45,791 bases of DNA from Candidatus Eiseniibacteriota bacterium (GCA_043818685.1 JBDRFQ010000362.1:1-45791), one strand, 5' to 3'; positions 18,829 through 45,510 are shown, counted from the stretch's first letter. Numbers and translations: made by a program. The notes: generated from the letters alone by a model not told the origin.

Positions 18829-19012
18829 CTAGCCTGGATTATGCACGCGTTTCCTGCTGCGGCTGCGGGTCGCGGCCTCCGAGGCCTCCCTTCCGTCGCC
18901 GCTTCCTCAACGTAGTGCCGAGACTACGTTTCCGGGAGCGGCTCGTCCAGGTCGGCCTCTCGGCGCGCGCTCCGCATCCTCGCGACGAAAAGGCGTGCAT
19001 AATCCAGGCTAG
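18829..19012. mobile_element. MITE-like palindromic element, copy A (184 bp, intact)
   Basis: Perfect 20-bp terminal inverted repeats CTAGCCTGGATTATGCACGC. The arms are imperfectly palindromic, with a central hairpin AACGTAGT-gccgag-ACTACGTT. CTAG is present at both ends. Confidence 0.75.
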
Positions 19013-20091
19013 CGCCTCGCGAGCGCGCGGAAGAGAGCGATGCCGATCGCGAGAAAGAGGATGTTGGCGATCCACACGCTGAGGACGGGGGGAAGAAGCT
19101 CGTTGTACCCGACCGACTGGCCGACGCGGATCCCCAGATAGTAGACGAAGCAGATCAAGAGGGCGAGCGTGAAGCCGAGGGCGTTTCCCCCTCTCCGAAG
19201 AAGCGCGGCGAGCGGGCTCCCGAGGAGAACGATAAGGAAGTTCGTGAAGGGGAACGAGAGCTTCATGTAGAGATCCACTTCCTCCTTCCGGACCTCCCCC
19301 CCGTTCATCTTCGCCTTCCTGATGTACTTCTTGAGTTCTCGATAGCTCATCTGTCTCGGGTTCTTCTGGATCTTCCCGAAGTCCTCCGGTGTTTCCCGGA
19401 TCTCCGGCTCCGTCCGCTCCTCGAAGGGGACCGCCTCGTCGAGCCCCTCGGCGGAGAAGCGCCGGAAGTACCCGTTCTCGAAGACCCACCTCCCGTTCTC
19501 CCACCTCGCCTTCTCGGCATCGATCCGCTGGATGAGCGTGTTGTTTCTGAGCAGCTGAACGACGACGTCCTCCATCCGTCCCTTCTCCACGTCCAGCCGC
19601 CCGATCCGGAACAGGCGCCCGTTGTCGCCGAGGAAGGAAAGGTTCGTCCGCAGGCGGGCGGTCCGGCGCCTCCCGGGCTTGATGATCTCGTCCTGGATCG
19701 TGTTCACCCGCTCCGCGGCCGGGGGGGCGAGGGTCTCGCCGGCGACGAGGGCGGCGAGGCTGACGGCGAGCCCGATGAAGAGGACGGGAAGAAGAGTACG
19801 GCGCATGCTGATCCCCGCGGTGAGCGTCGCGAGGAACTCGTTGTTCCTGGCGTGCGCTCCGAGCGAGAAGAGGCAGGCGAGGAGCATGCCGATCGGGAGC
19901 ATGAGGAGGAGGATCTCGGGCATGCGGAAAAGGTAGTAGCTCCCCACGACGGCGAGGGGGACTCCCTGATCGAGAAAGTCGTCGAGCTTCTCGAACAGGT
20001 CGAGCACAACGAAGATCGCGAGGAACGCCGCGAGCGCCAAGGCGAGGGAGAGAAGATATCGGGAGAGCACGTATCGGTCGAGGATCCTCAT
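19009..20091 (-). CDS. lptG: LptF/LptG-family LPS export permease (YjgP/YjgQ)
   Basis: MRILDRYVLSRYL... with multiple TM segments and a central periplasmic domain. The F versus G assignment rests on order only. The stop codon (CTA at 19009-19011) lies inside the CTAG end of MITE copy A. Confidence 0.75.
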   Translation of the reverse strand: MRILDRYVLSRYLLSLALALAAFLAIFVVLDLFEKLDDFLDQGVPLAVVGSYYLFRMPEILLLMLPIGMLLACLFSLGAHARNNEFLATLTAGISMRRTLLPVLFIGLAVSLAALVAGETLAPPAAERVNTIQDEIIKPGRRRTARLRTNLSFLGDNGRLFRIGRLDVEKGRMEDVVVQLLRNNTLIQRIDAEKARWENGRWVFENGYFRRFSAEGLDEAVPFEERTEPEIRETPEDFGKIQKNPRQMSYRELKKYIRKAKMNGGEVRKEEVDLYMKLSFPFTNFLIVLLGSPLAALLRRGGNALGFTLALLICFVYYLGIRVGQSVGYNELLPPVLSVWIANILFLAIGIALFRALARR

Positions 20092-21446
20092 CGTGTTCGG
20101 CCCGAAGTCGATTGGAAGAGACGGGGGAACCGAATGAAGCTCGTCTCGCGAGTCGAGCGCTGGACGAGGAAGATGCCGAGGCCGCCGATCAGGACGTTCG
20201 CGGCCCACATCGCGATGGCGGGCCGGAGGAATCCGCGGTCGGCGAGCTTCTCCCCGCCGATGAGGAAGAGGTAGTACACGACGAAGAAGACGATGCTGAA
20301 ACCGACGCCGGCCCCGAGCCCGCCCCGGTGCGCCTTGACGCCGAGCGGGGCGCCGACGAGCACGAAGACGACGCAAGCGACGGGGAGGGCGTACTTCTTG
20401 TGCACCTCGACCATGTAGCGGTCGATCTGCTTGTCCCTGTCCTCGATCGTGCTGGCGAGGGAGGCGAGGCGGTTGCCGAAGGCGTGGACCTCGCGGCCGA
20501 GGTTCTTCCGCGCGAGGGGCGGCGGAACGGAGGCGCTCCCGGCAACGAGGCTGTCCGCCCCGCGGAGGAGAGCGAGACGGGCCTCGAGGTGCTTGCGCGC
20601 CGCCGTTCGCGTCTCGTCTCGGGCGTCCTCGATCTCGCTCCGATAGGCGCGAACCCGTTCGAGCATGTCCCCCGCGCTCAGCTCGCGGTCCCCGCGCGTC
20701 TTCTTCCCGGAGCGGACGAGCTCCGACCCGATGTTGTTGATCCGGATCGTGTGCGTGTAGAACGAGATCTTGTGGTAGTTGGAGGGATCCTCCTCCTCGA
20801 CGGCGTGGATCTCCCCGTCGCTGAGGTCGAGCGTGAGGGTGTTGCCGTCCTCGGAAAAGTGGAGCCGCCCGCGCTCGGCCACGATCGTCTCCGCCTCCTC
20901 TCCCGCCTCCGCGCGCTGAATCGTGACCCCGGCGATTTCGGAGGTGCGGGAATCGAGCTTCTCGACCCGAAGGGTGTATCCTTCGACGTCGTTGAACACG
21001 CCCGGCTTGAAGGCGAGTCCGGGTCTCTTCCTGTGGATATCGACGAGGAGGCCGGCCAAACGGTGATTGCTCTCCGGAAGGATCCGGTTGTTGAATTGGA
21101 TGAGCCCCGCCGCAAGGAGAAGGGAAACGAGAAGCGGGGGGAGGAGTACTTGGTATATGCTCACGCCGGCCGCCTTCATCGCGGTGATCTCGTTGTCTCC
21201 CGAGAGCTGCCCGAACGCCATGACGGTCGCCACGAGGGCGCTCATCGGGACCGTGAGTGCGGCCATCCACCCGAGGCTGAGGAAGAAGACCTCGAGAACA
21301 ACGGGGAGCGGGACCCCCTTGCCGAGAAAGAGATCGATGTAGTCGATCAGGAGGTCCATCACGAAGAGGAAGGTGATGACGAGGATGGCGAAGAAGAAGG
21401 GAACGATGTGCTGGCGGAGGATGTAGAGACTCAGGATTGGGCGCAT
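20088..21446 (-). CDS. lptF: LptF/LptG-family LPS export permease (YjgP/YjgQ)
   Basis: MRPILSLYILRQHIVPFFF... shows the typical family N-terminus and has a 4-nt overlap with the downstream paralogue. Confidence 0.75.
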   Translation of the reverse strand: MRPILSLYILRQHIVPFFFAILVITFLFVMDLLIDYIDLFLGKGVPLPVVLEVFFLSLGWMAALTVPMSALVATVMAFGQLSGDNEITAMKAAGVSIYQVLLPPLLVSLLLAAGLIQFNNRILPESNHRLAGLLVDIHRKRPGLAFKPGVFNDVEGYTLRVEKLDSRTSEIAGVTIQRAEAGEEAETIVAERGRLHFSEDGNTLTLDLSDGEIHAVEEEDPSNYHKISFYTHTIRINNIGSELVRSGKKTRGDRELSAGDMLERVRAYRSEIEDARDETRTAARKHLEARLALLRGADSLVAGSASVPPPLARKNLGREVHAFGNRLASLASTIEDRDKQIDRYMVEVHKKYALPVACVVFVLVGAPLGVKAHRGGLGAGVGFSIVFFVVYYLFLIGGEKLADRGFLRPAIAMWAANVLIGGLGIFLVQRSTRETSFIRFPRLFQSTSGRTR

Positions 21447-21680: not shown

Positions 21681-21695
21681 TGGCACGCGGTTTGC
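21681..21695 (+). promoter_or_regulatory. Sigma-54 (-24/-12) promoter core TGGCACG-N4-TTGC
   Basis: GTGGCACGCGGTTTGCC lies in the 356-bp divergent intergenic region. It is oriented toward the sprA-like gene, about 135 nt upstream of the ATG at 21830. Confidence 0.55.
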
Positions 21696-27800: not shown

Positions 27801-27817
27801 CGCTCTTCAAGTTCTAG
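21830..27817 (+). CDS. sprA: Giant outer-membrane protein, SprA/Sov-like (type IX secretion translocon family)
   Basis: Signal peptide MRFGSRRGTARRIAAVLACIAAAALPAFG. The motif GNTNLALPGNQFVSFSAQQQGLFGVKVVGKAGKLDFTTILSQQQG resembles the SprA N-terminal signature as I recall it. About 1995 aa, beta-rich, ending in an aromatic residue (...ALFKF) as in OM barrels. An alternative start is 21803. Confidence 0.6.
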   Translation: MRFGSRRGTARRIAAVLACIAAAALPAFGAEPRADVAGARPFSLIRNPVHRNHPAFFSEARIAPYPEPQRALLKLPGDGAATSLRVDLDRGLVIVEQSLQETPLVYPWVASLAEYIAALRRFGIRRELIKSGRSVEARAGGSGESGMFDIDLPVRFPRTLSRIIGQGANIQVSGSESITFSGETQYFIKERDNESGGQRKFPELDMRQQLQINLTGTIGEKVKVEVQHNSESQVPLENRIKLRYEGFEDEVIQRIEVGNTNLALPGNQFVSFSAQQQGLFGVKVVGKAGKLDFTTILSQQQGRTDRETYAGGGREDSLVINDLDYIRERFFVVNEFRPVDDIRVFVDDDNATNNTGAQVQARAFVDVQDPSSSTQEQPGWFDEMEESVDYYINREIGVLTLNRSLPENYTLAIWYGVGGVDVGEVPPEASTDSSVVATLQLIRPPAEFYRPTNERFGKTWYYQLRNVYDLRARSIVEEGFDLRIYRKAAGAEERFDQQGGKTFLEILGLDVVDQSSNSSSDDRVDGQYFGAGNKIAEKAGIPPGASLPYVPTLLVDYDLGLLFFPDLRPFDPAYNHQFAGSPVESLTEGNSVIYDNHDPKPNDSKYEIQVKYRTSQGSFSLNRSNILEGSEVVKVDGRTLTRGADYRIIYEIGQIEFLADIPPDAKITVDFEYAPFLSQAQKSLAGIAGTYNLSDRTKLSSIWLYKGKRTPYRRPRLGQEPSRIVVGGLSLATEREPEFLTELTDRIPGITPSEGSSFRVDFETAATFPNPNTKNAVYIDDMEGTEESSSFGITRRQWDVMSIPKTGTGVHELDWESRYREVWWYNPKNATTRGDLNPSLSSEERIKFVPVLEVALRDGTVAGGTDRGAWGGVMRLVSKTGLDLKERKFFEVWINDFDLNRGKLHVDMGLLGEDAMWSAAEPNGTLDTEDKSGDGVLDDTGTNGPTDEDTGLDRLFNAQEPGTGGDPSGDDWGYDENRPDDYSRINGTENNGFLDTEDLNGNGYVDEEKAYFRFTIDLGSDEFVAARGSQEGSRNWRLFRVPLAKTEAVSVGGIVPTFDKGVKYVRFWFNELDTTNARFQIYSVEVTGNRWLEAGLQDSSGALIDTSEADPFEIFAAGVINNKDGEPYDPPPVEIIVEREVPEKEQSLVLNYENLHPGHTGTVFRALFDDEDYTRYQSMEFWAKRAEPHGDFEPYPLFFFRFGGDSLNFYEFSTVLDSASGTSWQRVVLDLASLTRVKLQEPGADSLYGRAVEARRDTVVVETARGPQVYVYSAVGNPSMTKVRRLTFGVTNPSREKDLTGVIWIDDLRLLDVKGDPGYAGRVGADLKLADFIAVSGDYRKVGKEFRNLSGGGSARGGEEGDENPRRGSDETETNLTGSIKLGKFIESVNLPLPLTMNWSKSVSLPELQNASDIVLADPSTEKSERKSEGASLSIQRSRKSESPWLYYGFDSMGLRLNGRRGSSFNPTKIDSSSSYGVDWTYNYAPRFNTELKVFRTWKVDFLPTNASVSAHRERSTNTSIDVRSDSKRKVEARKSTSDFGFAMKPVSSESFTSDFGFTTNRDHLYGRPLSFLASVNRGFEVRRNHDTKLSYTPGFSSLLAWFNPRLQYGTKYSEEMPIAQRQVIRDEDTGDTLSVRTLHNVQNTNTSSVDFTVGVARLFQAIPGVDDGEETDSAKTRFGPRSVLRGVRDAGTRIGDVTAAVSYGRDSRYDRITGRPDLRYQFGLTDRIDSLLQERTAGQTVTANTSRTLTTRASSSVRLPASMNLRVSFNSSRQRSDQSRNSRESKNTTWPDLAYSWDGLEELWKLENYLRSASMDLGYNHRTEQSGKTLAQIESERESTRWDPLVGLELDWLNGVRSSLSADRARETSRTFRGGFSEKVSTSQGISASFSYKMSSRKTVNIPILGKGTKGGSFTATTNFSLDFRFDTSKEEQTQPYRLDAHTRNFSIRPRVTWTWLQNLSGGLELQFGERRNLKNENRSTRTIGASISALFKF

Positions 27818-27996
27818 CCTGGACTCCGCACGCGTTTCCTGCTGCGGCCGCGGATCTCGGCCTGCGGGGCCTTCTTTCCGTCGCCGCTTCCTCAACAGGG
27901 ACCCGTGGCGCGCGTGGCTCTTGTCGCGACGGCTAGGAGCGACAAGTCTTAGCGCGCCGGGGGGGAGGCCGAGACTCCGTTTCCGGGACCGGCTCG
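27814..27996. mobile_element. MITE-like element, copy B (left end intact, centre replaced, right end degenerate)
   Basis: The first ~83 bp align with copy A (CTAGCCTGGACTCCGCACGCGTTTCCTGCTGCGG...CTTCCTCAAC). A private 71-bp insert follows at 27897-27967. Homology then resumes (GCCGAGACTCCGTTTCCGGGACCGGCTCG) and fades. Confidence 0.6.
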
Positions 27997-28901
27997 CCGG
28001 CGCCGGCGTCCTTCCGGCGGTCGCCGCGGCGCTCGCGCTCTCTGCGGGGTCCGGCCTCTCATTCGACGGAGAGAGGGCGATGGCTCACGTCCGCGCGCAG
28101 GTCGCCTTCGGACCCCGGATTCCCGGGACGGAGGGTCACGAACGGATGAGGAAGTGGCTCACGCGGGAGCTCCGGGGCAGCGCCGACGCGGTTGCCGAGC
28201 GGCCGTTCCCGGGGGTCAATTCCCTTACCGGCTCGACCTTCACCGGGACGAACATCATCGCCTCGTTCCGCCCCGAGCTCGAAGACCGGATCTTCTTCGG
28301 GGCTCACTGGGACACGCGCGCACAGGCGGACCACGACCCGGATCCGGCACGCCGGACCGAGCCGGTGCCGGGAGCGAACGACGGAGGGAGCGGGGTCGCC
28401 GTGCTCTTCGCCCTCGCCGAGGCGCTCGATCGCCGCCCTCCGCCGGTCGGCGTGGACCTCCTCTTTCTCGACGGGGAGGATCAGGGGAGCCCCGGCGGTC
28501 CGGGAGGCTATTGCCTCGGCGCGCGCGCATTCGCCGCGTCCTCGTCGCTCACCGGCTTCGCCCCCCGCTACGGGGTGATCATCGACATGGTGGGTCACCG
28601 GAACCTCCGCGTCGCGCGGGAGAGCAGCTCCATGGAGTGCTGCGCGGACTGGCTCGATCGAATCATGAAGATCGGCGAGCGGATCGCGCCTGACGTCTTC
28701 GGGAGCACGGAGACGGTCTCCCTCTACGACGATCACATTCCCTTCATCGAGGCGGGGATCCCGACGATCGTTCTGTCCGGGTCCGGCTACCCGGAGTGGC
28801 ACACGACCGCGGATCTCCCCGACATCTGCTCCCCCGGAAGCCTCGGGGCGGTCGGTTCGCTCCTCGAGGAGCTCGTGCACGGCGGCCACGAAATTCCTTG
28901 A
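27921..28901 (+). CDS. M28-family glutaminyl-peptide cyclotransferase-like protein
   Basis: FGPRIPGTEGH...NIIASF...FFGAHWDTRAQADHDPDP...PGANDGGSGVAVLFALAEAL...LLFLDGEDQG matches the bacterial animal-type QC/M28 pattern. The only canonical in-frame start that retains the signal-peptide-like segment (RPRLRFRDRLAGAGVLPAVAAALALSAG) is TTG 27921, inside MITE copy B. The start is uncertain. Confidence 0.55.
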   Translation: MSRRLGATSLSAPGGRPRLRFRDRLAGAGVLPAVAAALALSAGSGLSFDGERAMAHVRAQVAFGPRIPGTEGHERMRKWLTRELRGSADAVAERPFPGVNSLTGSTFTGTNIIASFRPELEDRIFFGAHWDTRAQADHDPDPARRTEPVPGANDGGSGVAVLFALAEALDRRPPPVGVDLLFLDGEDQGSPGGPGGYCLGARAFAASSSLTGFAPRYGVIIDMVGHRNLRVARESSSMECCADWLDRIMKIGERIAPDVFGSTETVSLYDDHIPFIEAGIPTIVLSGSGYPEWHTTADLPDICSPGSLGAVGSLLEELVHGGHEIP

Positions 28902-29483: not shown

Positions 29484-31099
29484 ACTTCGAAATCATCGAG
29501 GCGCTCGGGGGGATCGCCCGAGAGAAGAACGTCGACAAGAAGCTCGTGATCGAGACGCTCGCCGCCGGACTCGTCGCGGCAGTTCGGAAGAGGCACGGAG
29601 CGACCGCGGAGGTGGACGTCGTCGTCGACGAGCAGAAGAAGACGGTCAATGTGTACCTCTTGAAGAACGTCGTCGACATCGTCGAGGATCCGGTGCTCGA
29701 GGCGTCTCTCGAGGAGGCCCGCGAGCACGATCCGGAGACCGACGTCGGACATGTTCTTCGGATCGACATCCCCCTCGAGGAGTTCGGAAGGAACGCGATC
29801 CAGGCGGTCAAGCAGGTGGTCGTTCAGCGCGTGCGGGAGGCGGAGAGGGAGAGGGTCTTCGACGACTACCAGAACCGCGTGAACGAGGTGGTGACCGGGA
29901 CCGTCCAGCAGGTCGATCGCGGCGACCTCGTCGTCAACCTCGGGCGGACCGAGGCTCTGCTCCCCTACCGGGAGCAGATCCCCGGCGAGTCCTACCGCCA
30001 GGGTGACGCGATCCGGGCGGTCATCATCGGCGTCCAAAAGAACGTGAAGGGCCCCCAGGTGATCCTCTCCCGGACGCATCCGAGCTTCATGGAGCAGCTC
30101 TTTCGCATGGAGGTGCCCGAGCTTCACGAGGGGATCGTCGAGATCCGCGCGACGGCGCGGGAGGCGGGGCTCCGCTCGAAGATCGCGGTCTTCTCGAACG
30201 ACGACCGCATCGACCCGGTGGGCGCGTGCGTCGGCATGAAGGGCTCCCGCGTGCAGGCGGTCGTTCGCGAGCTCTCGGGGGAGCGGATCGACATCGTTCC
30301 CTGGTCCGGCGACTGGAAGGTCTTCGTGACGCGCGCCCTCTCCCCGGCCAAGGTGACCGAGATCGCCGTGAACGAGGAAGAGCACTCGATGCGCGTCGCC
30401 GTCGCGGAGGGCCAGCTCTCCCTCGCGATCGGGAAGAAGGGGCAGAACGCGAGGCTCGCCGCCAAGCTCACGGGGTGGAGGATCGACCTGGTGAAGGAGG
30501 AAGAGAAGCCCATGGCGGTGGCGGTCGTGGACGAGAAGGGGATGCCGCTCATCGGCGTGGAGAACCTCCCCGGCGTCGGCCCGAAGCTGGCGCTGCGCTT
30601 GATCCAGGAGGGTTACGTGAACGTCCAGGACCTCCTCAAGGTGGACGTGGCGACCTTGGTCCAGCTGCCCGGGGTCGGTGAGAAGACCGCGGAGAAGATC
30701 GTCGAGGCTGCGGAGATCATGGTCGAGGAGCTCGAGAAGGCGGTCCGAGGCGAGGGCGAGGACGAGGAGACCGAGGGGGCAGCGGCGGACGCCGGAGAGA
30801 CCGAAGAGGGGGAGGAGCCGGAGACGGGCGAGGAGGCTGAAGAGGCCGAGGAGGCGGAAGAGCCCGAGGAAGACGAGGAAGGGGTCGGCGAAGAGGAAAG
30901 CGCAGAAGATGAAGAGCTGAGTGGCGCCGGGGGGGCTCCGGGGGACGAGGAGGAGGAAGAGGAGGAGGACGGGGAAGAGGAGGAGAAGGGGCCTGGCGCG
31001 GCGGAAGAGGGCTCGGACTCTTCGGCGCCGGAGCGCGCGGATGAGCCGGAAGAAGAGGATTCCGAAGAAGCGGACGAGAGGGGCGACGGGGCCCCCTAG
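29480..31099 (+). CDS. nusA: Transcription termination/antitermination factor NusA with ~115-aa acidic C-terminal tail
   Basis: MNFEIIEALGGIAREKNV..., S1 and KH regions (RIDPVGACVGMKGSRVQAV, LAIGKKGQNARLAAKLTGWRIDL), an HhH region, then an E/D-rich tail. Confidence 0.95.
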   Translation: MNFEIIEALGGIAREKNVDKKLVIETLAAGLVAAVRKRHGATAEVDVVVDEQKKTVNVYLLKNVVDIVEDPVLEASLEEAREHDPETDVGHVLRIDIPLEEFGRNAIQAVKQVVVQRVREAERERVFDDYQNRVNEVVTGTVQQVDRGDLVVNLGRTEALLPYREQIPGESYRQGDAIRAVIIGVQKNVKGPQVILSRTHPSFMEQLFRMEVPELHEGIVEIRATAREAGLRSKIAVFSNDDRIDPVGACVGMKGSRVQAVVRELSGERIDIVPWSGDWKVFVTRALSPAKVTEIAVNEEEHSMRVAVAEGQLSLAIGKKGQNARLAAKLTGWRIDLVKEEEKPMAVAVVDEKGMPLIGVENLPGVGPKLALRLIQEGYVNVQDLLKVDVATLVQLPGVGEKTAEKIVEAAEIMVEELEKAVRGEGEDEETEGAAADAGETEEGEEPETGEEAEEAEEAEEPEEDEEGVGEEESAEDEELSGAGGAPGDEEEEEEEDGEEEEKGPGAAEEGSDSSAPERADEPEEEDSEEADERGDGAP

Positions 31100-31378: not shown

Positions 31379-31672
31379 GTGGGCTTCGCCCTTCGGACCG
31401 GGAGGGTCGTCGCCGGCGAGACCGGAGCGCGGATCGCGGCGCGGCGCCGGAAGAGCGGTGTGCTCCTCATCGCATCCGACATGGATGAGAAGAGCGCCGC
31501 GCGGGTCCGGGCCTGGGCAAGGGAGGTCCCGATTCCGGTCTTCGCCCCGCTCGAGGCGGAAGCGCTGGCGGAGGCGGCCGGGCGGGGGCGCTGCGACGTC
31601 CTTCTCGTGGAGGACAGAAACGTCGCTCGGTCTCTCGCGAAGGAGCTTGGCGAGGCCTCCGGTTTCTGCTAG
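31379..31672 (+). CDS. L7Ae/YlxQ-family RNA-binding protein
   Basis: GFALRTGRVVAGETGARIAARRRKSGVLLIASDMDE... with the typical position between ylxR and infB. Start is uncertain (GTG 31379). The TAG stop lies inside the end of MITE copy C. Confidence 0.65.
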   Translation: MGFALRTGRVVAGETGARIAARRRKSGVLLIASDMDEKSAARVRAWAREVPIPVFAPLEAEALAEAAGRGRCDVLLVEDRNVARSLAKELGEASGFC

Positions 31673-31846
31673 CCTGGTCCACGCACGCGTTTTCGTCGCG
31701 AGGACGCGGAGCGCGTGCCGAGGGGCCGACATGAACGGGCCACTCCCTGAAGCGTAGTCTCGGCGCCACGCCCCAGGAAGCGGCGATGGAGAGCAGGCCT
31801 CGAAGGCCGCGGCTGCAGCAGGAAGCGGGCGCAGAATCCGGGCTTG
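31669..31846. mobile_element. MITE-like element, copy C (178 bp, inverted relative to A, diverged)
   Basis: It aligns end to end with copy D at roughly three quarters identity by eye. The left end is CTAGCCTGG. The right end ...GCAGAATCCGGGCTTG has its terminal CTAG mutated to CTTG. Confidence 0.7.
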
Positions 31847-34048: not shown

Positions 34049-34080
34049 CCGGGATTCCGGCGCGCGTTTTCGCCGAGACC
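34045..34080. repeat. Solo terminal fragment of the MITE family (fragment E)
   Basis: CTAGCCGGGATTCCGGCGCGCGTTTTCGCCGAGACC versus the element arm CTAGCCTGGATTATGCACGCGTTTTCGTCGCGAGG, about 70-75% identical by eye. Confidence 0.35.
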
Positions 34081-34413: not shown

Positions 34414-34767
34414 ATGAGATATAAACGATCGGAGCGCGTGTCCGCCTTGATCCTCCAAGAGGTCGCCGGAATGATCGAGGAGGGGCTCAAGAACCCGAAC
34501 ATCGGGTTCGTCACGGTGACCGCCGTGGAGGTCTCGGACGATCTGCGGCACGCGAAGATCTATGTCGTCCCGCACGGAGACGACGCGGAGCGGGCGAGAA
34601 CGCTGAAGGCGCTCGACGACTCCCTGCCGTGGATCCGTCGCGAGCTTGCCCGGACGCTCGACCTCAAGTATGTCCCGACCCTCGCCTTCCGGGCCGATCG
34701 GTCGTTCGATCACGCCGATCGAATCAACCGCCTGCTCGACGAGATACACGAGGAGGAGAAGGATTGA
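34414..34767 (+). CDS. rbfA: Ribosome-binding factor A
   Basis: RSERVSALILQEVAGMI...GFVTVTAVEVSDDLRHAKIYV is the RbfA signature. Confidence 0.9.
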   Translation: MRYKRSERVSALILQEVAGMIEEGLKNPNIGFVTVTAVEVSDDLRHAKIYVVPHGDDAERARTLKALDDSLPWIRRELARTLDLKYVPTLAFRADRSFDHADRINRLLDEIHEEEKD

Positions 34768-35669
34768 TCCACGGTCTTCTCAACCTCGACAAGCCGAAGG
34801 GGTGGACCTCCCACGACGCGGTGGCGAAGATCCGGAGGCTGATCGACCAGCAGCGGGTGGGGCACGCGGGCACGCTCGATCCGAACGCGACCGGGGTCCT
34901 TCTCCTCTGCCTGGGGAGCGGGACCAAGCTCTCCCGCTACTTCATGTTCCTCGAGAAGGAGTACCACGCGTTCTTCCGCCTCGGCCTCATCACGGACACA
35001 CAGGACGCCGACGGGCGGATCCTCGAGACGCGGGACCCGAGCGCCGTGACGGAGGAGGCGGTCCGCGAGGTGATCGGTCGCTACCGCGGCAGGATCCTCC
35101 AGACGCCGCCGATGGTCTCGGCGGTCAAGGTGGGGGGGAAGCGGCTCTACCGGCTCGCCAGGCGCGGCCAAACGGTCTAGCGGCAGGCGCGGCCGATCGA
35201 GATCCGCTCCTTCGACCTGGTCCGCTACGAACCCCCTGTGGCGGAGGTTCATCTCGTCTGCTCGAAGGGAACCTACGTGAGGACCCTCGCGGCCGACATC
35301 GGCGATGAGCTCGGTTGTGGCGCGTATCTCGACCGTCTCACGCGCGTTCGGATCGGGCCGTACCGGGTCGACGATGCGATCGGCATGGAGGAGCTCGAGG
35401 GGACCCTCCGCGAAGGCGGAAAGGGCTTCTACATCCCCATCGAGAGGGCGATCGGGAGCCTTCCGGTGGGGACCCTCCGCGTGACGCCGGGGAGATGGGC
35501 GGGCGTCGCGCTCCCCCGCTCGCTCGAGGCGCTCGAGCCGCTCGACCCGATCCCCGCGGAGGGCCAGTTCCTCACGATCGCGGATCGCGCCGGGCGTCCG
35601 CTCGGGGTGGTCGAGGTCGCGAAGGAGCGGGGCAGGCTCCGCAAGGTCTTCGTTCTGGGCAGCCCATGA
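34764..35669 (+). pseudogene. truB: tRNA pseudouridine-55 synthase TruB interrupted by one in-frame TAG (35178-35180)
   Basis: The N-part (GLLNLDKPKGWTSHD, GHAGTLDPNATGVL) and C-part (CSKGTYVRTLAADIG) are in the same frame, separated only by TAG. That codon sits where homologues have a sense codon (G-x-x-V-E/P-R). The stop still overlaps the ribF ATG. Confidence 0.8.
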
Positions 35670-37114: not shown

Positions 37115-39196
37115 ATGTCAGAACGAATGGAGCTGCGGGTCGGTTCCTCGACGATCGCCGTCGAGACCGGCCGGATCGCGAAGCAGGCGGAGGGTGCCGT
37201 CACGATTCAGGCGGGGGGCACGGTGGTGCTGGTGACCGCGGTGGCGACCCCCGAGCCGGTCAAGGACCGGGGTTTCTTCCCCCTGATGGTGGAGTACCGC
37301 GAGCGGTCGTACGCCGCCGGGAAGATCCCCGGCGGTTTCTTCAAGCGCGAGGGGAGACCGCTCGAGCGGGAAATCCTGGCGGCCCGCCTGATCGACCGGC
37401 CGCTTCGCCCCCTCTTCCCGAAGGGGTTCCTGCACGAGGTGCAGATCATCGCCACGGTCCTCTCGACGGACCAGGAGAACGCCCCGGACGTGCTCGCCCT
37501 GGTTGGCGCCTCGACCGCTGTCGCCCTTTCGTCGATCCCGACGGAGAAGACGATCGCTGCGGTGCGCGTGGGCAAGCTGAAGGGGGAGCTCGTGGTGAAC
37601 CCCTCGATCGCGGACCGCGAGGAGAGCGAGATGGACCTCGTGGTCGCCGCGGCTCGCGATTCGATCGTGATGGTCGAGGGGGGCGGGAAGGAGTTCTCCG
37701 AGAAGGACATGGTCGAGGCCCTGAAGCTCGCGCACGGAGAGTGCGTGCGGATCATCGACGGGATCGAGGAGCTCCGCGGGCGAGCCGGCAAGGAGAAGCG
37801 CGCCGTGGTCCGGGACGAAGCGCCCGATCGGATCCGGGAGCGGATCCAGGGAATCGTTGGAGAGCGGATCGCCGAGGCGAACCGCTTCGGCGTGAAGGAG
37901 GAGCGGGGGACCTTCGTCCGCGCGCTCGAGAAAGAAGTCATCGAGGGTCTGGCCGAGGAGTTCCCGGAGAAAGAGCCCCTCATCAAGGCGCTTCTCGACG
38001 AGATGCTCGGCGAGGAGGCCCGCCGGAAGATCTTTTCGGAGGAGGTGCGGCTCGACGGCCGGAAGCTCGACGAGATCCGTCCGATTACCTGCGAGGTGGG
38101 GGTGCTCCCGCGGACGCACGGCTCGGCCCTCTTCACGCGCGGGCAGACGCAGGCGCTCGTCGCGATCACCCTCGGCACCTCGTCGGACGAGCAGCGGATG
38201 GACGACATCGAGGGCGAGCGGTTCAAGAAGTTCATGCTCCACTACAACTTCCCTCCCTTCTCGGTGAACGAGGTGCGGATGATCCGGGGGACGGGCCGCC
38301 GCGAGGTCGGCCACGGAGCGCTGGCCGAGCGGTCGATCCGGCAGACGATCCCGGACCCGGACAGCTTCCCCTACACGATCCGCGTGGTGGCGGACATCCT
38401 CGAGTCGAACGGCTCCTCGTCGATGGCCTCGGTGTGCGGGGCGATCCTCGCCCTGATGGACGCCGGCGTTCCGATTCGGAAGCCGGTCGCGGGGATCGCG
38501 ATGGGGCTCGTGGCGGGAGAGGGGAAGCACTGCGTTCTCTCCGACATCCTCGGCCAGGAGGACCCCGGCGGCGACATGGACTGCAAGGTCGCCGGAACGC
38601 GGGACGGAATCACCGGGTTCCAGATGGATCTCAAGACCGCGGGGATCGGGTTCGACGTGATCGAGAAGGCTCTCGATCAGGCGCGCCGCGGGCGCCTGTT
38701 CATCCTGGACAAGATGGAGGCGACGCTCGCGAAGCCGCGGCCGGAGCTCTCCCCGTACGCGCCGAGGATCCTCACGATCAAGGTCCACACGGACAAGATC
38801 CGAGAGATCATCGGCCCGGGGGGCAAGATGATCCGAAAGATTCAGGAGGAGTCGGGCGCGTCGATCGACATCGAGGACGACGGCACCGTGAAGATCGCCT
38901 CGGTGGACGAGGAGGCGGGGCGAAAGGCGATGGAGATGATCAGGGCGCTCATCGAGGAGCCGGAGATCGGCCGGGTCTACGAGGGGACGGTCCGCCGGAT
39001 CGTGCCCTTCGGAGCGTTCGTCGAGATCCTCCCGGGCAAGGACGGGCTCCTTCACATCTCGGAGATCGAGAACCGGCGCGTCGCCAAGGTCGAGGACGTG
39101 CTGAACGAAGGGGACAAGGTCCAGGTCAAGGTGATCAACATCGACGAGGAGGGGAAGGTCCGCCTCTCCCGCAAGGCGCTCCTCGTGAAGAGCTAG
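37115..39196 (+). CDS. pnp: Polyribonucleotide nucleotidyltransferase (PNPase)
   Basis: Two RNase PH domains, then KH (IGPGGKMIRKIQEESGA) and S1 (GTVRRIVPFGAFVEILPGKDGLLHISE). AAGGAG lies upstream of the ATG at 37115. Confidence 0.95.
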   Translation: MSERMELRVGSSTIAVETGRIAKQAEGAVTIQAGGTVVLVTAVATPEPVKDRGFFPLMVEYRERSYAAGKIPGGFFKREGRPLEREILAARLIDRPLRPLFPKGFLHEVQIIATVLSTDQENAPDVLALVGASTAVALSSIPTEKTIAAVRVGKLKGELVVNPSIADREESEMDLVVAAARDSIVMVEGGGKEFSEKDMVEALKLAHGECVRIIDGIEELRGRAGKEKRAVVRDEAPDRIRERIQGIVGERIAEANRFGVKEERGTFVRALEKEVIEGLAEEFPEKEPLIKALLDEMLGEEARRKIFSEEVRLDGRKLDEIRPITCEVGVLPRTHGSALFTRGQTQALVAITLGTSSDEQRMDDIEGERFKKFMLHYNFPPFSVNEVRMIRGTGRREVGHGALAERSIRQTIPDPDSFPYTIRVVADILESNGSSSMASVCGAILALMDAGVPIRKPVAGIAMGLVAGEGKHCVLSDILGQEDPGGDMDCKVAGTRDGITGFQMDLKTAGIGFDVIEKALDQARRGRLFILDKMEATLAKPRPELSPYAPRILTIKVHTDKIREIIGPGGKMIRKIQEESGASIDIEDDGTVKIASVDEEAGRKAMEMIRALIEEPEIGRVYEGTVRRIVPFGAFVEILPGKDGLLHISEIENRRVAKVEDVLNEGDKVQVKVINIDEEGKVRLSRKALLVKS

Positions 39197-39422: not shown

Positions 39423-39487
39423 CTTCAACTATTCAGTGTATGGGTTTAGGCGTGGCGGTTCCGGCCCTTGAACGGGAGGAGGGGATC

Positions 39488-39973
39488 ATGAGGAAGTTGT
39501 TAACGGGTGCGCTGTTGGTTGCTTTCATCGCCTTGCCGGCGCTCGCGAGAGACCCGGGGATCCAGGTCGTCGACTGCATCGAGGATCCGCCCGGAATCTG
39601 GACGTACTTCTTCTTCGCCTGTACGGGCGAGTTCTACGCGAACGGCCTCGAGATCGGGCTAACGGGCCCGGAGTGGGACGAGCCGACGGTGGTGCTCGGC
39701 TGCTCGGTTCCGGATCTTCCCGGCTACTCTTGCGCCTCCGATGCGACCATGGCGCACTACTTCTTCCCGTCGGCGGGGAACTATACGTGCGTGCCCGGCG
39801 TCGTAGGACAGTACTTTGACATCGTGCTGTCCACGGCGGACGGAGTGACGATCGTCTACGAGACATGGACTTTGTACGGGGTCCCGGAGGACTCGTTCTT
39901 CTCGGTCATCGCGTGCCCCCCGATGGGGACCGAGTCCTCGACGTGGGGCCACCTGAAGACCCTGTTCCGGTAG
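39488..39973 (+). CDS. Small secreted Cys-rich hypothetical protein (161 aa)
   Basis: Signal peptide MRKLLTGALLVAFIALPALA, six Cys in the mature part, and the C-terminus ...STWGHLKTLFR. It has GGGAGGAGGGG upstream and its own promoter and terminator. I recognised no family. Confidence 0.6.
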   Translation: MRKLLTGALLVAFIALPALARDPGIQVVDCIEDPPGIWTYFFFACTGEFYANGLEIGLTGPEWDEPTVVLGCSVPDLPGYSCASDATMAHYFFPSAGNYTCVPGVVGQYFDIVLSTADGVTIVYETWTLYGVPEDSFFSVIACPPMGTESSTWGHLKTLFR

Positions 39974-39999
39974 ACGATCGAACAAGATCTCGAAGACCC

Positions 40000-40035
40000 G
40001 CGGGGCGGACCGCGAGCGGTTCCGCCCCGCTTTCC
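40000..40035 (+). terminator. Intrinsic terminator after the small secreted gene
   Basis: 10-bp stem GCGGGGCGGA/TCCGCCCCGC with an 11-nt loop, followed by TTTCC. Confidence 0.5.
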
Positions 40036-40309
40036 TCATGTCTCTTCCGGCTCGACCGGCGGGAGGGTTCCTTTCGACTCAGGGCGGGGCGGTCCCGCGA
40101 AACCTGGGCGAGCGACAGCCCGGACGTTTCGTCGAACCGGGCGGCCCATCCTCCGGAAAAAGCCCGGGGGGTTCGGATCTTCGCGGCGCTCGGGGCCGCG
40201 CGGACGGCCTCAACGGTCGCGAAACGCTCATCATGCGACGAACATCCTCGCCTTCCCGAGAAGGGAGGCGACACGAGGAGCCTCGGGCGGGCCGGGCCGC
40301 GCTTCTTTC

Positions 40310-40338
40310 TTGACATCTCCGCCTAACACGGTTATCTT
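40310..40338 (+). promoter_or_regulatory. Sigma-70-type promoter TTGACA-N17-TATCTT upstream of the TetR gene
   Basis: The hexamers sit at 40310-40315 and 40333-40338. A short palindrome TAAC-ACG-GTTA overlaps the spacer and the -10, and could be an operator. Confidence 0.45.
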
Positions 40339-40385
40339 AACAGCGATAGAGTATCAAGGGGTTTTTGCGTGGGGAGGAACCCTCC

Positions 40386-41003
40386 GTGGCGAGGCCGAGC
40401 AATCCCGAGCTTCCTGCGGCGATCCTGGAAGCGGCCGAGAAGAGAGTGGCCGCCTCGGGGCACGATGGCCTCAACATGCGGGACCTGGCGGCGGATGTCG
40501 GGGTGACTCCCGCCGCCCTCTATTACTACTTCGCCTCCAAGGAGCGCATCCTCCTGGAGCTCAGGCTCCGCGCGGCTTGCCGGCTCAGCGAGACCATGCG
40601 CAAGATCGATGGATCGCACGGCGCGCGGGCGGCGATTCGGGCCTTGGGCGTGGCCTACATTGCATTTGCCGAGGAGCATCCGCACCTGTACGGCCTGCTC
40701 GTGGAGACGAGGATCGGAGCCGAGCTCGCGTCCGGCGAGGAGACAGAGACCCTCCGTCTCCCTTACGATGCCGCGCGCCGTCTCCTCGAGAACCTCGTGG
40801 ACCGCGGCCTCTGCGTGTGCGACCCGGACGGGAGGGCCGCGATCGGGTGGATTCTCCTTCACGGCTTCTGCTCGCTCCTTGCGGCAGGCAACCTGGAGGC
40901 GGTCAGCCGGCTCGACCGCGAGACCCTCAAGGAGACGTTTCTCGAGTACTTCGGTACCGGCCCGTTCATCGACGGTGAGCCGGGTCGGACCGCCCCTGAC
41001 TAG
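40386..41003 (+). CDS. TetR/AcrR-family transcriptional regulator
   Basis: HTH segment LNMRDLAADVGVTPAALYYYFASKERIL. GTG 40386 follows GGGGAGGAA (alternative TTG 40365). The TAG stop lies inside the end of MITE copy D. Confidence 0.85.
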   Translation: MARPSNPELPAAILEAAEKRVAASGHDGLNMRDLAADVGVTPAALYYYFASKERILLELRLRAACRLSETMRKIDGSHGARAAIRALGVAYIAFAEEHPHLYGLLVETRIGAELASGEETETLRLPYDAARRLLENLVDRGLCVCDPDGRAAIGWILLHGFCSLLAAGNLEAVSRLDRETLKETFLEYFGTGPFIDGEPGRTAPD

Positions 41004-41183
41004 CCTGGATTATGCACGCGTTTTCGTCGCGAGGGTGAGGAGCGCGAGCCGAGAGGCCGACCTGGACGAGCCGCTCCCGGAGACGTAGTCACGGCCCTAC
41101 GTTGAGGAAGCGGCGACGGAAGGGAGGCCTCGTAGGCCGCGATCCGCAGCCGCAGTAGGAAACGCGTGCACAATCCAGGCGAG
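41000..41183. mobile_element. MITE-like element, copy D (184 bp, inverted near-identical copy of A)
   Basis: Its reverse complement aligns with copy A over the full length, with about 12 mismatches by eye. The left end is CTAGCCTGGATTATGCACGC. The right-end CTAG is mutated to CGAG. Confidence 0.75.
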
Positions 41184-41192
41184 GAGGAAGGA

Positions 41193-42473
41193 ATGAAAGC
41201 GCGACGTGCGTGGATCCGGTCGGTCTTCTTCTCGGCGCTCCTTGCGGCGGCCGCTTGGAGCCTGTGCTGCTCGCCCGACAAAGACGGGGGCGGGGCCGAG
41301 CGTTCAGCCGGTGGCATCGAGTTCCGTGAGGAGATCGTGGCCGGAGGGCCCGACGACTTCATGGAGGTGCGACACATCGTACTTCGCGGCTCGAACTTCG
41401 AGATCGGCAGGAAGCTTGCCGAGATCGCGAGAGAGCGTCACGGCGCCGGACCGATCCCCTCTCGGGCGCCGGAGGAGACGCGTGCCCAGCGCGAGTACTT
41501 CGAGGCGCACTACCCGGTCCTCGTCGAGCGCATGAGGGGAGCGGCAGCGGCCTTCGGCCTGGATCTCCGAGAAGACGGCTGGAACCTCTCCGGGCTCCTC
41601 TACGGCTTCCGGTTCGGCGGGTGCAGCGTGGTCTTCTACCCGCCCGGGACGTCCGAGACGGGAAGGGGCGTCCTCAGCAGGAACTTCGACTTCACGACCG
41701 GAACGTTCCTGGGCGAGAAGCCCCGGGAGGGCGAGCTGCCCGCCTGCGCGCGGCCGTACGTGGTCGAGATGCATCCCGATAAAGGCCACGCGTCGCTCGC
41801 GATCTGCTCCTTTGACCTCCTCACGGGCGTCATGGACGGCATCAACTCGGAGGGTCTCGCGGTAGCAATCCTCGGCGACAACGACGTGATCTCCGAGGTC
41901 GGCATGAGCCCCACGAGGGGAGCCCACGCCGGCTTCAACGAGACCCAGATCCTCCGCTGCATCCTCGACACCTGCGCCGATGTGGAAGAGGCGAAGCGGC
42001 TGCTCCGGGATGCGGATCTCTACTACAACACCGCCCCCTATCACTACATCGTCGCCGACAGGCACGGAGACGCGTTCATCTGGGAGAACGCGCCCGGCAT
42101 GGAGGAGGGCTTTACCGTCGAATCGCCCGGCGAGCCGCTCGTCACCACGAACTTCCTGCTCCACAGGTATCCGGACCCGTCCGGGCTGCCCGAGGAGGCG
42201 GAGCCCCTGGGCTGGTTCAACCGCTATCGGGAGATCAAGCGGCGCCTCGATGAGACCGCGCCTCCGTACGACCTCGCGTTCATCAGGGAAACGAACCGGT
42301 GCGTTTCCTTCGACGGGGAACAACCGGAGATCGAGCCCTACCCCCCCGGCGCCACGATGTGGCATGCGCTGTACCATCCGGTCGAGCTGAGGGCGGAGGT
42401 CGATTTCTACCTCGGCCGGGATGCGGACGGGGCTGTCCGCCGGTCGGGGTCTGTTGCGCTCGCGCTCGAGTAG
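41193..42473 (+). CDS. Putative lipoprotein, Ntn-hydrolase-like (peptidase C45 / acyltransferase-type fold suspected)
   Basis: Lipoprotein-like N-terminus (LLAAAAWSLCC). An internal GGCSVVFY could be a Gly-Cys autoprocessing/nucleophile site as in C45 enzymes. The family call is tentative. Confidence 0.4.
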   Translation: MKARRAWIRSVFFSALLAAAAWSLCCSPDKDGGGAERSAGGIEFREEIVAGGPDDFMEVRHIVLRGSNFEIGRKLAEIARERHGAGPIPSRAPEETRAQREYFEAHYPVLVERMRGAAAAFGLDLREDGWNLSGLLYGFRFGGCSVVFYPPGTSETGRGVLSRNFDFTTGTFLGEKPREGELPACARPYVVEMHPDKGHASLAICSFDLLTGVMDGINSEGLAVAILGDNDVISEVGMSPTRGAHAGFNETQILRCILDTCADVEEAKRLLRDADLYYNTAPYHYIVADRHGDAFIWENAPGMEEGFTVESPGEPLVTTNFLLHRYPDPSGLPEEAEPLGWFNRYREIKRRLDETAPPYDLAFIRETNRCVSFDGEQPEIEPYPPGATMWHALYHPVELRAEVDFYLGRDADGAVRRSGSVALALE

Positions 42474-42539
42474 AAGCGGGCGGTGGGGTGCCCGGATCGT
42501 GAGTGCGTAGTGGTACCGGATACCGCCCGGCAGCCCTGG

Positions 42540-43715
42540 CTAGATCCCGCCCCACTTTGCGATGCGGTCGGCCGCCTCGGCGAGGCGCTCCTTCGGCTCG
42601 ACGAGCGCCATGCGCACGAAGCCCTCGCCCGCGCGCCCGAACCCGGTCCCGGGGCTCATGATCACGCCGGTCGAGAGGCCGAGCTTCACCGCGAACACCT
42701 CGGACGAGCCGAACTTCTCCGGGATGCGCGTCCATACGTACATCCCCGCCTTCGGCGAGGCGACGTTCCAGCCGATCTTCCGGAGGCCCCCGACGAGCAC
42801 GTCGCGCCTCTCGCGATAGGTCTTCCTGAGATCGACGAGACAGTCCTGAGGCCCGTCGAGAGTCTCGGCCGCCGCCGCCTGGATCGCCGGGAAGACGCTG
42901 AAATCGGAAACGGTCTTGATCTTCCTGACCATCGCGACGACGTCACGGTTTCCGACGAGGAACCCGACGCGCCATCCAGCCATGCAGTACGTCTTCGAGA
43001 AGGACTGGAACTCGATCGAGCGCTTCTTCTCCGGGTCGAGCTGGAAGATCGACCGCGGGCTCACCCCCTCGTCGAGGGGAAGCTCCGAGTATGCGATGTC
43101 CGAGACCGCGAGAAGCCCGTGCTTCTCCGCGAACGCGAGCGCCTTCTCGTAGAAGTCGGTCTCGACCGCCCCCGTCGGGTTGTTCGGGTAGTTGAAGAGG
43201 AGATACTTCGCCCTCGCGAGGACATCCGCGGGGACCGCCTCGAGGTCCGGAATGAACGCGTTCTCCTCGAGAAGCGGAAGCTCGTGCGCGACCCCCTCGG
43301 CCACCTGCACGGCGGGGAAGTAAGCGGGGTAGGCGGGGGAGGGGACGAGCGCCACGTCCCCCGAGTTCAGCATCGCGAGGGCGAGCTTGAGAAGCCCTTC
43401 CTTCGACCCGACGACGGGGAGCACCTCCGTCTCCGGGTCGACGTCGACGCCGAAGCGCTTCTTGTACCAGCGGGCGACCGCCTCCCGGAAGACCGGGATC
43501 CCGTTGAAGGGGGAGTAGCGGTGGAGCTGGCGCTTCGGATCGTCGAGGGCCCGGTGAAGGGCGTCGATCGCGTGGCGCGGAGGCCTGAGATCCGGGTTCC
43601 CGATGGCGAGGTCGATGAGGTCCTTTCCCTTCGCCTTCGCCTCCGCCTTCATCTCGTCCGTGCGGGCGAACGCGTACTTCGGCAGCGTGGCTGCTCGCTT
43701 GGCGAACGCGTACAT
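42540..43715 (-). CDS. Class I/II PLP-dependent aminotransferase (LL-diaminopimelate aminotransferase-like)
   Basis: LPKYAFARTDEMKAEAKAKGKDLIDLAIGNPD, NYPNNPTG and the SFSKTYCMAGWRVG lysine motif. Confidence 0.75.
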   Translation of the reverse strand: MYAFAKRAATLPKYAFARTDEMKAEAKAKGKDLIDLAIGNPDLRPPRHAIDALHRALDDPKRQLHRYSPFNGIPVFREAVARWYKKRFGVDVDPETEVLPVVGSKEGLLKLALAMLNSGDVALVPSPAYPAYFPAVQVAEGVAHELPLLEENAFIPDLEAVPADVLARAKYLLFNYPNNPTGAVETDFYEKALAFAEKHGLLAVSDIAYSELPLDEGVSPRSIFQLDPEKKRSIEFQSFSKTYCMAGWRVGFLVGNRDVVAMVRKIKTVSDFSVFPAIQAAAAETLDGPQDCLVDLRKTYRERRDVLVGGLRKIGWNVASPKAGMYVWTRIPEKFGSSEVFAVKLGLSTGVIMSPGTGFGRAGEGFVRMALVEPKERLAEAADRIAKWGGI

Positions 43716-43798
43716 GGAACAACTCCTTGTAGAGCCGGGGAGGCTCGGTTAGCATGTCGATCGTAGCGCCCCCAGAGCGGGGCGTCAAGGAGAGGAGC

Positions 43799-44569: not shown

Positions 44570-45480
44570 GAGCGTTCGATTGGATCTTCATCGCGCGTCC
44601 GATCGTCCTGATCCCCGCGTGGGCGTTTCTGATCGTCGGGTATTTTCGGGCGAACGAGCGCTCCGGCGAGTTCTCCCCGCCGCTTGGGCCGCTCCTTCTC
44701 CCGTTCGTTCTCCTTACGGTCGTTCTGGCCGGCGCCTACATCGTCAACCAGATCTACGACCGGGAGACGGACAAGGAGAACGGGAAGCTCTTCCTGATCG
44801 CCGAGGGGCACGTTTCGGTGCGCGGCGCCTGGATCGAGGCGGTTCTGCTCATGGCGGGGGGGCTCGCCGCATCGCTCGTTCTTCGCCCGGGCCTCCTCCC
44901 CTGGCTCCTCGCCTCGGCGCTTCTCGGCCTTCTCTACTCGGTTCCGCCGGCGCGCTTCAAGGGGAGGCCGGTCCTCGACCTCGTGGCGAACGCGTGCGGC
45001 TACGGGGCGGTCACCTTCCTCTTCGGGTTCTCTCTGGCCGGCCGTGCCGGCGCGGAGGAGATCGCCCACGCTCTCCCCTACGTGCTGCTTGTCGGAGCGG
45101 TCTTCCTTCACACGGCGCTCGTCGATCAGGACGGGGACAGGAAGGCGGGGATGAGGACGACCGCGGTCGCGCTCGGTGACCGCGCGACGTCGGCCGCGGC
45201 GCTCGTTCTCCTCGCGCTGGCGGGGCTCGCCGGGGTCCGGGTCGGAGAGCCGTACGTTCCTCCGGCGGCGATCGGCGCGTCTCCCTTCTTCCTCTGGGGG
45301 GCCCTCTTCCCCGGCCGCAAGGGGAGCACGCTTGCCTATCAGTGGGGGAGCCTCCTCTTCGTTCTTCTTGTCGTGATGCGCGTGCCGCTCTTCGGGCTCC
45401 TACTCGTTCTCCTCGTCGCCGCGACGCGCGCCTACTACCGGTTTCGCCTCAACCTGGTCTATCCCCGGCTCGACTTCTAG
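44563..45480 (+). CDS. UbiA-family prenyltransferase
   Basis: Multi-TM protein with NQIYDRETDKEN (NxxxDxxxD) and a second Asp-rich motif VDQDGDRKAGMRT. Its 5' end overlaps the deacetylase 3' end by 7 nt (ATGCTGA). The TAG stop lies inside solo fragment F. Confidence 0.8.
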   Translation: MLRAFDWIFIARPIVLIPAWAFLIVGYFRANERSGEFSPPLGPLLLPFVLLTVVLAGAYIVNQIYDRETDKENGKLFLIAEGHVSVRGAWIEAVLLMAGGLAASLVLRPGLLPWLLASALLGLLYSVPPARFKGRPVLDLVANACGYGAVTFLFGFSLAGRAGAEEIAHALPYVLLVGAVFLHTALVDQDGDRKAGMRTTAVALGDRATSAAALVLLALAGLAGVRVGEPYVPPAAIGASPFFLWGALFPGRKGSTLAYQWGSLLFVLLVVMRVPLFGLLLVLLVAATRAYYRFRLNLVYPRLDF

Positions 45481-45510
45481 CCTGGATGATGCCCGCGTTC
45501 TCGTCGCTAG
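45477..45510. repeat. Solo terminal fragment of the MITE family (fragment F, 34 bp, CTAG at both ends)
   Basis: CTAGCCTGGATGATGCCCGCGTTCTCGTCGCTAG matches the first ~31 nt of the element arm CTAGCCTGGATTATGCACGCGTTTTCGTCGC. Confidence 0.5.

Follow-up and report, generated by a model that had tools for sequence, protein, structure and literature searches.

Stowaway elements of plants are transposable elements of the miniature inverted-repeat class (MITEs) of the IS630/Tc1-mariner kind and form a hairpin over their whole length. The Correia elements of Neisseria are MITEs of ~100-150 nt that duplicate TA, occur at very high density and are often co-transcribed with their neighbours; neither a preference for CTAG nor a systematic overlap with stop codons is known to us in these elements. 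IS630 prefers the TA in 5'-CTAG-3' according to Tenzen & Ohtsubo (1991, as cited in PMC2170065), the IS630-family element ISY100 duplicates TA (PMC2170065), and RUP of S. pneumoniae is linked to IS630-Spn1 (PMC2229807). Here we examine a family of hairpin repeats in 45,791 nt of Candidatus Eiseniibacteriota DNA (GCA_043818685.1 JBDRFQ010000362.1:1-45791; this whole stretch is called the window below), the copies of which abut stop codons. We conclude that this is a previously undescribed repeat family of an uncultured phylum, that it works like an IS630-type, Stowaway-like MITE without any new mechanism, and that its overlap with stop codons follows from known properties, as the expected result of a known target preference.

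The family is like IS630 and Tc1-mariner elements and their MITEs (IS630, ISY100, RUP) in inserting at and duplicating TA, and in consisting of short non-coding derivatives with terminal inverted repeats (TIRs). It is unlike IS630-type MITEs in its host, an uncultured phylum, in an internal palindrome with compensatory changes, and in that about half of its copies coincide with stop codons, owing to the way in which the host uses CTAG and TAG. Its TIRs differ from those of Correia elements and are unrelated in sequence to any element among those compared. MITEPsy1, which is of IS5 type, shares a preference for CTAG or YTAA (PMC3189936) but duplicates 4 nt, where our flanks agree with 2 nt. With the GTAG-tagged repetitive extragenic palindromic (REP) sequences and REPINs, the family has in common that high-copy extragenic hairpins lie at gene 3' ends, that they show paired changes, as expected of a REP or REPIN hairpin, and that they occur as singlets, dimers and clusters. 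It differs from them in its 178-nt unit, its TIRs of 21-25 nt, its CTAG on both sides, its symmetric flanks and an empty site that is already CTAG. Nor is the TIR self-complementary, as a REP unit would be, beyond a 4-bp CGCG stem, and the CTAG tag pairs with the other end of the element, where a REP has an unpaired GTAG (or CGTC) tag.

The repeats are copies and decay products of one MITE-like family, non-coding and folding into a hairpin along the whole length. The 178-nt unit is the basic form, and variants of 241-321 nt as well as remnants of 51-55 nt or of a single TIR also occur. The two TIRs are 96% complementary (GCCTGGATTATGCACGCGTTT; as the bounding sequence written for the element ends, GCCTGGATTATGCACGCG), and the first of these sequences matches the window six times at up to three mismatches, against none expected. 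Just inside the TIRs the two ends diverge, End A continuing ...TTTCCTGCTGCGG and End B ...TTTTCGTCGCGAG. At about 42 of 45 termini the first base of the element is G or the last base is C. Mutual identity of the copies is 76-95%, and no two are identical. The window contains 6-7 copies within 27 kb, and related contigs contain ~26 further independent ones. Three features that characterize a MITE are present: TIRs, short dispersed non-coding copies, and a presence/absence polymorphism with a target-site duplication. The two 178-nt copies of the window, next to lptG and to a TetR gene, have hairpin energies of -119.5 kcal/mol (z -10.7) and -111.8 kcal/mol (z -9.3), respectively.

Each of the six clear copies or fragments of the window has at least one terminus at which the flanking TA and the first G of the element together make the TAG stop of a real gene (Table 1). 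These genes encode LptG, SprA, YlxQ, IF-2, TetR and UbiA, with a convergent PatA_N-like gene at the far side of the UbiA fragment. Genes were called by a codon-score method and their identities were checked by Pfam or homology. The partial minus-strand open reading frame (ORF) that is PatA_N-like is a real gene with a differing C-terminal tail, as follows from its identity to the PatA_N-domain gene beside UbiA in a syntenic relative. Thus the CTAG positions and the seven gene stops listed in an earlier note on this DNA all exist, the repeats are real, and the genes are confirmed. Outside the elements, 22 of the 441 TA dinucleotides lie in stop codons, and therefore seven junctions out of seven at stops are far beyond chance for a plain TA target (P ~8e-10; P = 2e-4 when compared with non-genic TA only). 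CTAG itself is found only 16 times in the window versus 58.7 expected, and at least half of the 16 are element junctions.

At ylxQ, the filled site of the window can be compared directly with an empty one. In six orthologous contigs (L112-L117), the gene ends in ...ctgCTAGtctgttcc (in a longer reading, ...atctgcTAGtctgttccgggtcggg, or ...TAGgctggtcc...), and infB begins 37 nt later. With slashes marking the element boundaries, the filled site reads ...ttctgcTA/GCCTGG...172 nt...CCGGGC/TTGcctgttccggatcggg, and the two flanks read ctgCTA/G...C/TTGcctgttcc. Therefore, the stop before insertion was a TAG within CTAG, the element entered this stop at the TA, and it is now followed by a second T(A>T)G. 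The YlxQ protein ends in the same last residue with or without the insertion, its length being unchanged, and the C-termini of IF-2, SprA, UbiA and LptG match those of their orthologues. The ylxQ pair and the near-constant G and C termini bear out the proposal of the earlier note that a G...C element entering the TA of a CTAG rebuilds the stop and preserves protein length.

The flanks show the same target on both sides. C precedes TA in ~80% of them and G follows TA in ~74%, a symmetry that matches the published preference of IS630, and TA is present on both sides of most full copies. Flanks are informative about the length of the duplication if the outer base is not C or G. In these, the inner G or C is constant in eight copies and follows the flank in one, which favors a 2-bp over a 4-bp duplication by 8:1. 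The disagreeing 4-mers include CTAG/CTAA, TTAG/CTAG, GTAG/CTTG, CTAG/TTAA and CGAG/CTAC, while the single case that fits a 4-bp duplication is TTAG/TTAG at copy L055b. On this ratio a 4-bp duplication model was rejected. Both a TA duplication and a preference for TA within CTAG, as known for IS630/Tc1-mariner elements, are thus found here; given the palindromic target, the flanks do not amount to full proof of the TA duplication.

To place the window among its relatives, we used related genomes and metagenome contigs, with search patterns that held the TIR only and left the flank out. Insertions common by orthology were counted once, such as those of L107 and L130 at the stop of the same gene. 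About 12 of the 26 independent insertions outside the window (46%) have a junction stop, so the statement that every copy abuts a stop is correct for the window and does not extend beyond it. In most of the external genes with a junction stop, the Pfam models reach their last positions. The other external insertions are at intergenic CTA, TTA or GTA sites, and several lie at a distance of 5-46 nt downstream of a stop, TGA or TAG. We then have to ask how often an element that prefers CTAG would meet a stop. In 203 kb of related loci, 42 free CTAG were present, of which 16 were in stops, 24 were intergenic (about five of these being element-internal sites or unmasked element ends) and 2 were genic; of all TA in these loci, 2.8% were in stops. 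A CTAG-preferring element is therefore expected on stops ~40% of the time, and the external rate agrees with this expectation (P = 0.45). The view that gene ends act as a safe harbour, or that selection retains only such insertions, goes further than this comparison requires, since selection of the ordinary kind suffices. Stop codons in the clade comprise 72 TAG, 76 TGA and 5 TAA; TAG makes up about half of them, and therefore provides a larger target pool. Of the junctions at stops, 13 are formed by End A and 7 by End B. This lack of orientation bias argues against a directional functional signal and is as expected for transposition. We conclude that target preference and the distribution of CTAG explain the pattern, and that a special safe-harbour mechanism is not needed.

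The family is probably a non-autonomous hairpin MITE that was moved by an IS630/Tc1-mariner-type transposase and spread in the Candidatus Eisenbacteria clade, the most likely mover being a cut-and-paste DDE transposase of this type. Such an enzyme would insert the element into a TA dinucleotide, preferably a TA within the palindrome CTAG, and would duplicate the TA. Given an element of the form G...C, each junction would read TA plus G inward, and a gene hit in its TAG (or TAA) stop would have TAG at the same codon. CTAG is strongly avoided in the genome and survives almost only as ...C TAG stops and in spacers; the link with stop codons would exist because of this confinement, causation running from the host's CTAG distribution to the landing site. 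Insertions within genes would be removed by selection anyway. After insertion, the stop-side TA would be held by selection on the stop codon, with drift among stop codons possible, and the far-side TA and the element body would decay or be deleted, often leaving a TIR alone beside the stop. The locus would then offer a natural example of how transposon target preference, host CTAG depletion and ~50% TAG usage jointly channel insertions onto stops and leave genes undamaged.

Several observations weigh against this explanation. The seven of seven in the window exceed the ~0.4 expected (P ~0.003), making the window an extreme sample. The orthologous sites at infB and ahcY have a G before TAG and that at lptG has TGA, so that a CTAG before insertion is assumed, not seen, at these three sites; the earlier expectation that orthologues would reveal a CTAG stop was borne out at ylxQ, held at infB for the TAG and not for the preceding base, and failed at lptG. 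In the fetched loci there was no autonomous copy or transposase with these TIRs and no TIR pair 0.7-2 kb apart, and a search for a transposase among the ORFs near paired TIRs (L110, L055) and the unannotated ORFs of the window found only ordinary genes (an LVIVD repeat protein, a PPDK-like protein and ribosomal proteins). The family assignment hence derives from target and duplication only. Moreover, the arms of the whole hairpin co-vary, beyond the TIRs, which a DDE transposase does not require. Five pairs have double changes, and 18 double-change cells were counted versus 6.1 ± 2.7 in shuffles (0 of 500 as high), a figure that can be inflated by shared descent; covariation extends into the central stem, one pair of which is found as G-C, as A-U and as U-A. 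Finally, since target and element are both palindromic, a duplication of TA cannot be strictly separated, by sequence alone, from a terminal TA that belongs to the element and lies beside CTA.

A terminal TA(G) borne by the element is what would be expected of a hairpin resembling a REPIN or TIR repeat and moved as single-stranded DNA by an HUH tyrosine transposase (RAYT, TIRYT or IS200/IS605-like). It would insert beside (C)TAG without true duplication and would supply, or coincide with, the stops. We consider this, the main rival reading, unlikely, although it would accommodate the whole-length hairpin (z -9 to -10), the compensatory arm changes even in the central stem, the very high local density of 6-7 copies in 27 kb, and the existence of singlet, doublet and mini forms. 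There is also precedent (PMC3733652): the termini of GTAG REPs are reported to supply neighbouring ORFs often with their TAG stop, and RAYT-like genes are known that have long TIR families at their flanks. However, the TIR here is not a palindrome of 20-40 nt, and the tag is CTAG rather than GTAG. At the ends, the inverted repeats are perfect down to the final base, a feature of DDE elements. The G that follows the right TA in ~74% indicates a symmetric target, whereas an HUH enzyme with guide-based recognition would read the 5' side of the cut only, and no HUH gene, RAYT or other, was seen near any copy in the ~200 kb examined. A somewhat more doubtful possibility is a new class of giant CTAG-tagged REPIN-like hairpin, the arms of which selection would keep complementary, with a single-stranded hairpin intermediate and the amber stop as its preferred landing site. 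If true, it would colonise and help maintain the unusually frequent TAG stops of the clade, and a role as an RNA structure at 3' ends would be conceivable.

It is quite improbable that the hairpin is functional at stops, as a 3'-end RNA stabiliser, processing site, terminator or DNA structure, and that selection for this function explains the pattern. A function would account for the excess of the window over the ~0.4 that the CTAG distribution predicts, for a hairpin maintained by covariation, and for old copies common to different species. In contrast, the external rate is the one expected from target sites, about half of the copies lie elsewhere than at stops, orientation is unbiased, and the hairpin has been lost in the copy that lies within the essential nusA-infB operon. 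A scan of 40900-41300 found no U-tract and no terminator-like or promoter-like feature, and in particular no GC-rich stem followed by a T run as in an intrinsic terminator; there was also no Rfam match. Fragments always retain their stop-side end, which could be taken as a sign of function but is expected simply since the stop codon lies there. We regard as very improbable an IS5-family-derived MITE, similar to MITEPsy1, with a 4-bp CTAG/YTAR duplication around an element proper of CCTGG...CCAGG. A 4-nt duplication at CTAG or YTAA is what MITEPsy1 produces on insertion (PMC3189936). In our family, CTAG stands at either side of most copies, and TTAG at either side of L055b; yet the flanking 4-mers disagree in eight of nine informative copies, and the inner G and C are conserved like termini of the element.

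The element is also present in the metagenome-assembled genome (MAG) DeMMO4_6 (JAGUYC01), in VGIW01000003 (L112) and in about fifteen metagenome contigs. The first pattern used on the genome collection, GCCTGGNNNNNGCACGCGTTT, was too loose, with most of its 111 matches arising by chance, and it did reveal DeMMO4_6. As a control, nine unrelated chance matches of the second pattern were all without a CTA flank. Identity to the IF-2 of the window is 87% for DeMMO4_6 and 86% for VGIW01000003. DeMMO4_6 is labelled Gemmatimonadetes, yet by IF-2 and LptG it belongs with Candidatus Eisenbacteria. VGIW01000003 also contains the sprA copy and, in decayed form, the UbiA-side remnant; therefore these insertions predate the split of the two species. 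At the aminotransferase stop, VGIW01000003 carries a full copy (17631-17809) with a mutated terminal base, giving TAA as the junction stop, and the window has at most a faint remnant at this orthologous position. In relatives, infB ends in ...TAGcccgttcgaccgg, without a TIR and with a spacer 21 nt shorter than that of the window. What follows infB in the window is truly the remnant of a TIR: in the anchored alignment it scores 14, as compared to a maximum of 11 at sites unrelated to known copies (mean 2.8, s.d. 1.5). The lptG-ahcY spacer is only 3 nt in relatives and contains no element. In a third lineage, locus L146, a solo End A remnant is present and forms the ahcY stop with its end, while L143-145 and the window have none there; this is an independent insertion at the other stop of the lptG-ahcY spacer. 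We also sought an orthologous empty site for the TetR copy and found no close TetR orthologue (best 53%), and therefore the cassette is lineage-specific. The family is the first repeat family described for Candidatus Eisenbacteria and is usable as a lineage marker.

Many copies have changed since insertion. The far-side TA is often mutated, to TT, GA, TC or GAA; this decay and the level of identity among copies fit old, immobile copies. Junction stops have drifted to TAA (L112 17809) and TGA (L137 11856). In L135 (about 1-125), the junction is GAG and the stop is lost, so that the ORF reads at least 42 codons into the element, an example of how mutation of a junction stop can extend a protein into the repeat. 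In the copy within the nusA-ylxQ-infB operon, no excess folding energy is left (z -0.47 for window positions 31669-31846), in contrast to z near -10 in the other full copies, such as that at 41000-41183. This loss, seen in one copy (n = 1), possibly reflects selection against a strong hairpin in an essential operon.

The earlier note had described a half copy after sprA. A copy is present there, but it is not a simple half: it is a truncated 241-nt variant reaching ~28010, which retains the End A half and the central insert. The long variants carry, within the central loop, a palindromic insert of ~68 nt in which a further CTAG or TTAG is found, and the orthologous copies in L107 (178 nt) and L130 (241 nt) differ by this insert. 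The insert is possibly a nested second small element. Minimal forms are either two TIRs back to back (51-55 nt) or single TIRs of ~26 nt with CTAG at both edges, and their recurrence suggests a preferred deletion route. In the UbiA fragment, the CTAG at 45507 corresponds to a position ~27 nt into the element consensus; either an internal deletion may have brought the right terminus there, or an internal site may have mutated.

Table 1. Element copies and remnants, junction stops and unoccupied CTAG stops. Positions refer to the window unless a locus number is given.
Feature	Position	Strand	Remarks
Full-length copy at lptG, 178 nt	18832-19009	-	94% identical to the copy at 41003, opposite orientation; TA on both sides (18830-18831, 19010-19011); End B plus flanking TA forms the lptG stop; End A is 66 nt beyond the ahcY stop at 18762
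Truncated copy at sprA, 241-nt long variant	27817-28010 (right limit ~28010)	-	End A plus TA forms the sprA stop 27815-27817; ~68-nt central insert at 27897-27966; End B half decayed
Degenerate full-length copy, 76.5% identical	31672-31843	+	Between ylxQ and infB; left TA plus G forms the ylxQ stop; right duplication decayed to TT (31844-31845), flank TTG
Solo End B TIR remnant GCCGGGATTCCGGCGCGCGTTTTCG	34048-34072	+	Directly after the infB stop 34046-34048
Full-length copy at TetR, 178 nt	41003-41180	+	Left TA plus G forms the TetR stop 41001-41003; right flank GA in place of TA (GAG, decayed duplication), merging into the Shine-Dalgarno GAGGAGG of the next gene (ATG 41193)
Very degenerate End A remnant, candidate GCAGCCCTGGCTAG	42520-42543	.	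Abuts the aminotransferase stop 42540-42542 (minus); weak; the sequence by itself gives no significance
Solo End B TIR fragment at UbiA, 27 nt	45480-45506	+	CTAG at both edges (45477-45510); left junction forms the UbiA stop, right CTAG carries the stop of the convergent PatA_N-like gene
Long variants (241, 259, 321 nt)	L129 1043-1283; L130 4957-5197; L118 4383-4704; L134 6211-6531; L137 2754-3012		
Minimal forms	L131 4406-4456; L125 557-611; L128 about 5163-5195; window 45477-45510		
LptF/LptG stop	19009-19011	-	
SprA stop	27815-27817	+	
L7Ae/YlxQ stop	31670-31672	+	
IF-2 (infB) stop	34046-34048	+	
TetR stop	41001-41003	+	
UbiA prenyltransferase stop	45478-45480	+	
PatA_N-like partial gene stop	45507-45509	-	69% identical to the UbiA neighbour in a syntenic relative
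Unoccupied CTAG at hpf (S30AE) stop	11937-11940	+	Potential target
Unoccupied CTAG at nusA stop	31096-31099	+	TGA in relatives
Unoccupied CTAG at pnp stop	39193-39196	+	TGA in relative L112

Some CTAG stops in the window are unoccupied. The nusA and pnp stops had been put forward as empty ancestral targets, a role that does not fit the TGA found there in relatives. We also considered whether free CTAGC(G) stops are excision footprints or remnants of the element, and rejected this: those of nusA and pnp align base for base with TGA-ending relatives, TIR-anchored alignment finds nothing at such stops, and CTAG stops elsewhere precede any base. The last observation also reduces the CTAGCG context of the earlier note to a small-sample effect. 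Stops in this 67% GC genome are about half TAG and half TGA with almost no TAA, and nusA, pnp and lptG have TAG here and TGA in relatives. To our knowledge, a TAG share of about half is unusually high for a genome of this GC content.

One free CTAG lies inside a gene. In truB (34764-35669), a single in-frame TAG at 35178-35180 (GTC TAG CGG) splits TruB_N, where two relatives have GTC GAG CGG (Glu). Possible accounts are a nonsense mutation, a pseudogene and an error of the assembly. A scar of the element was rejected as its origin, the difference being a single GAG>TAG substitution.

Two further segments of the window are absent from relatives. One is the 66 nt between the ahcY stop and the lptG copy (18763-18828), which contains the tRNA T-arm-like GGTTCGATTCTCCCGGG; ARAGORN and Rfam gave no match in this segment, and tRNA and Rfam searches of the whole window were also empty. 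The other is a three-gene block between pnp and the aminotransferase gene (39440-42473), which comprises a 177-amino-acid ORF without a Pfam match, TetR and an acyl-CoA:6-APA acyltransferase-like protein. It is absent in the syntenic L112, holds the best-preserved copy of the element, and is possibly acquired DNA.

For annotation, repeats that start inside a stop codon should be expected in this clade. Several contigs of related MAGs end inside the element (L086 2643-2664, L110 2793-2924, L121 and L135), and the contig of one relative ends in a TIR. The repeat therefore breaks short-read assemblies, and with them the MAGs built from such reads.

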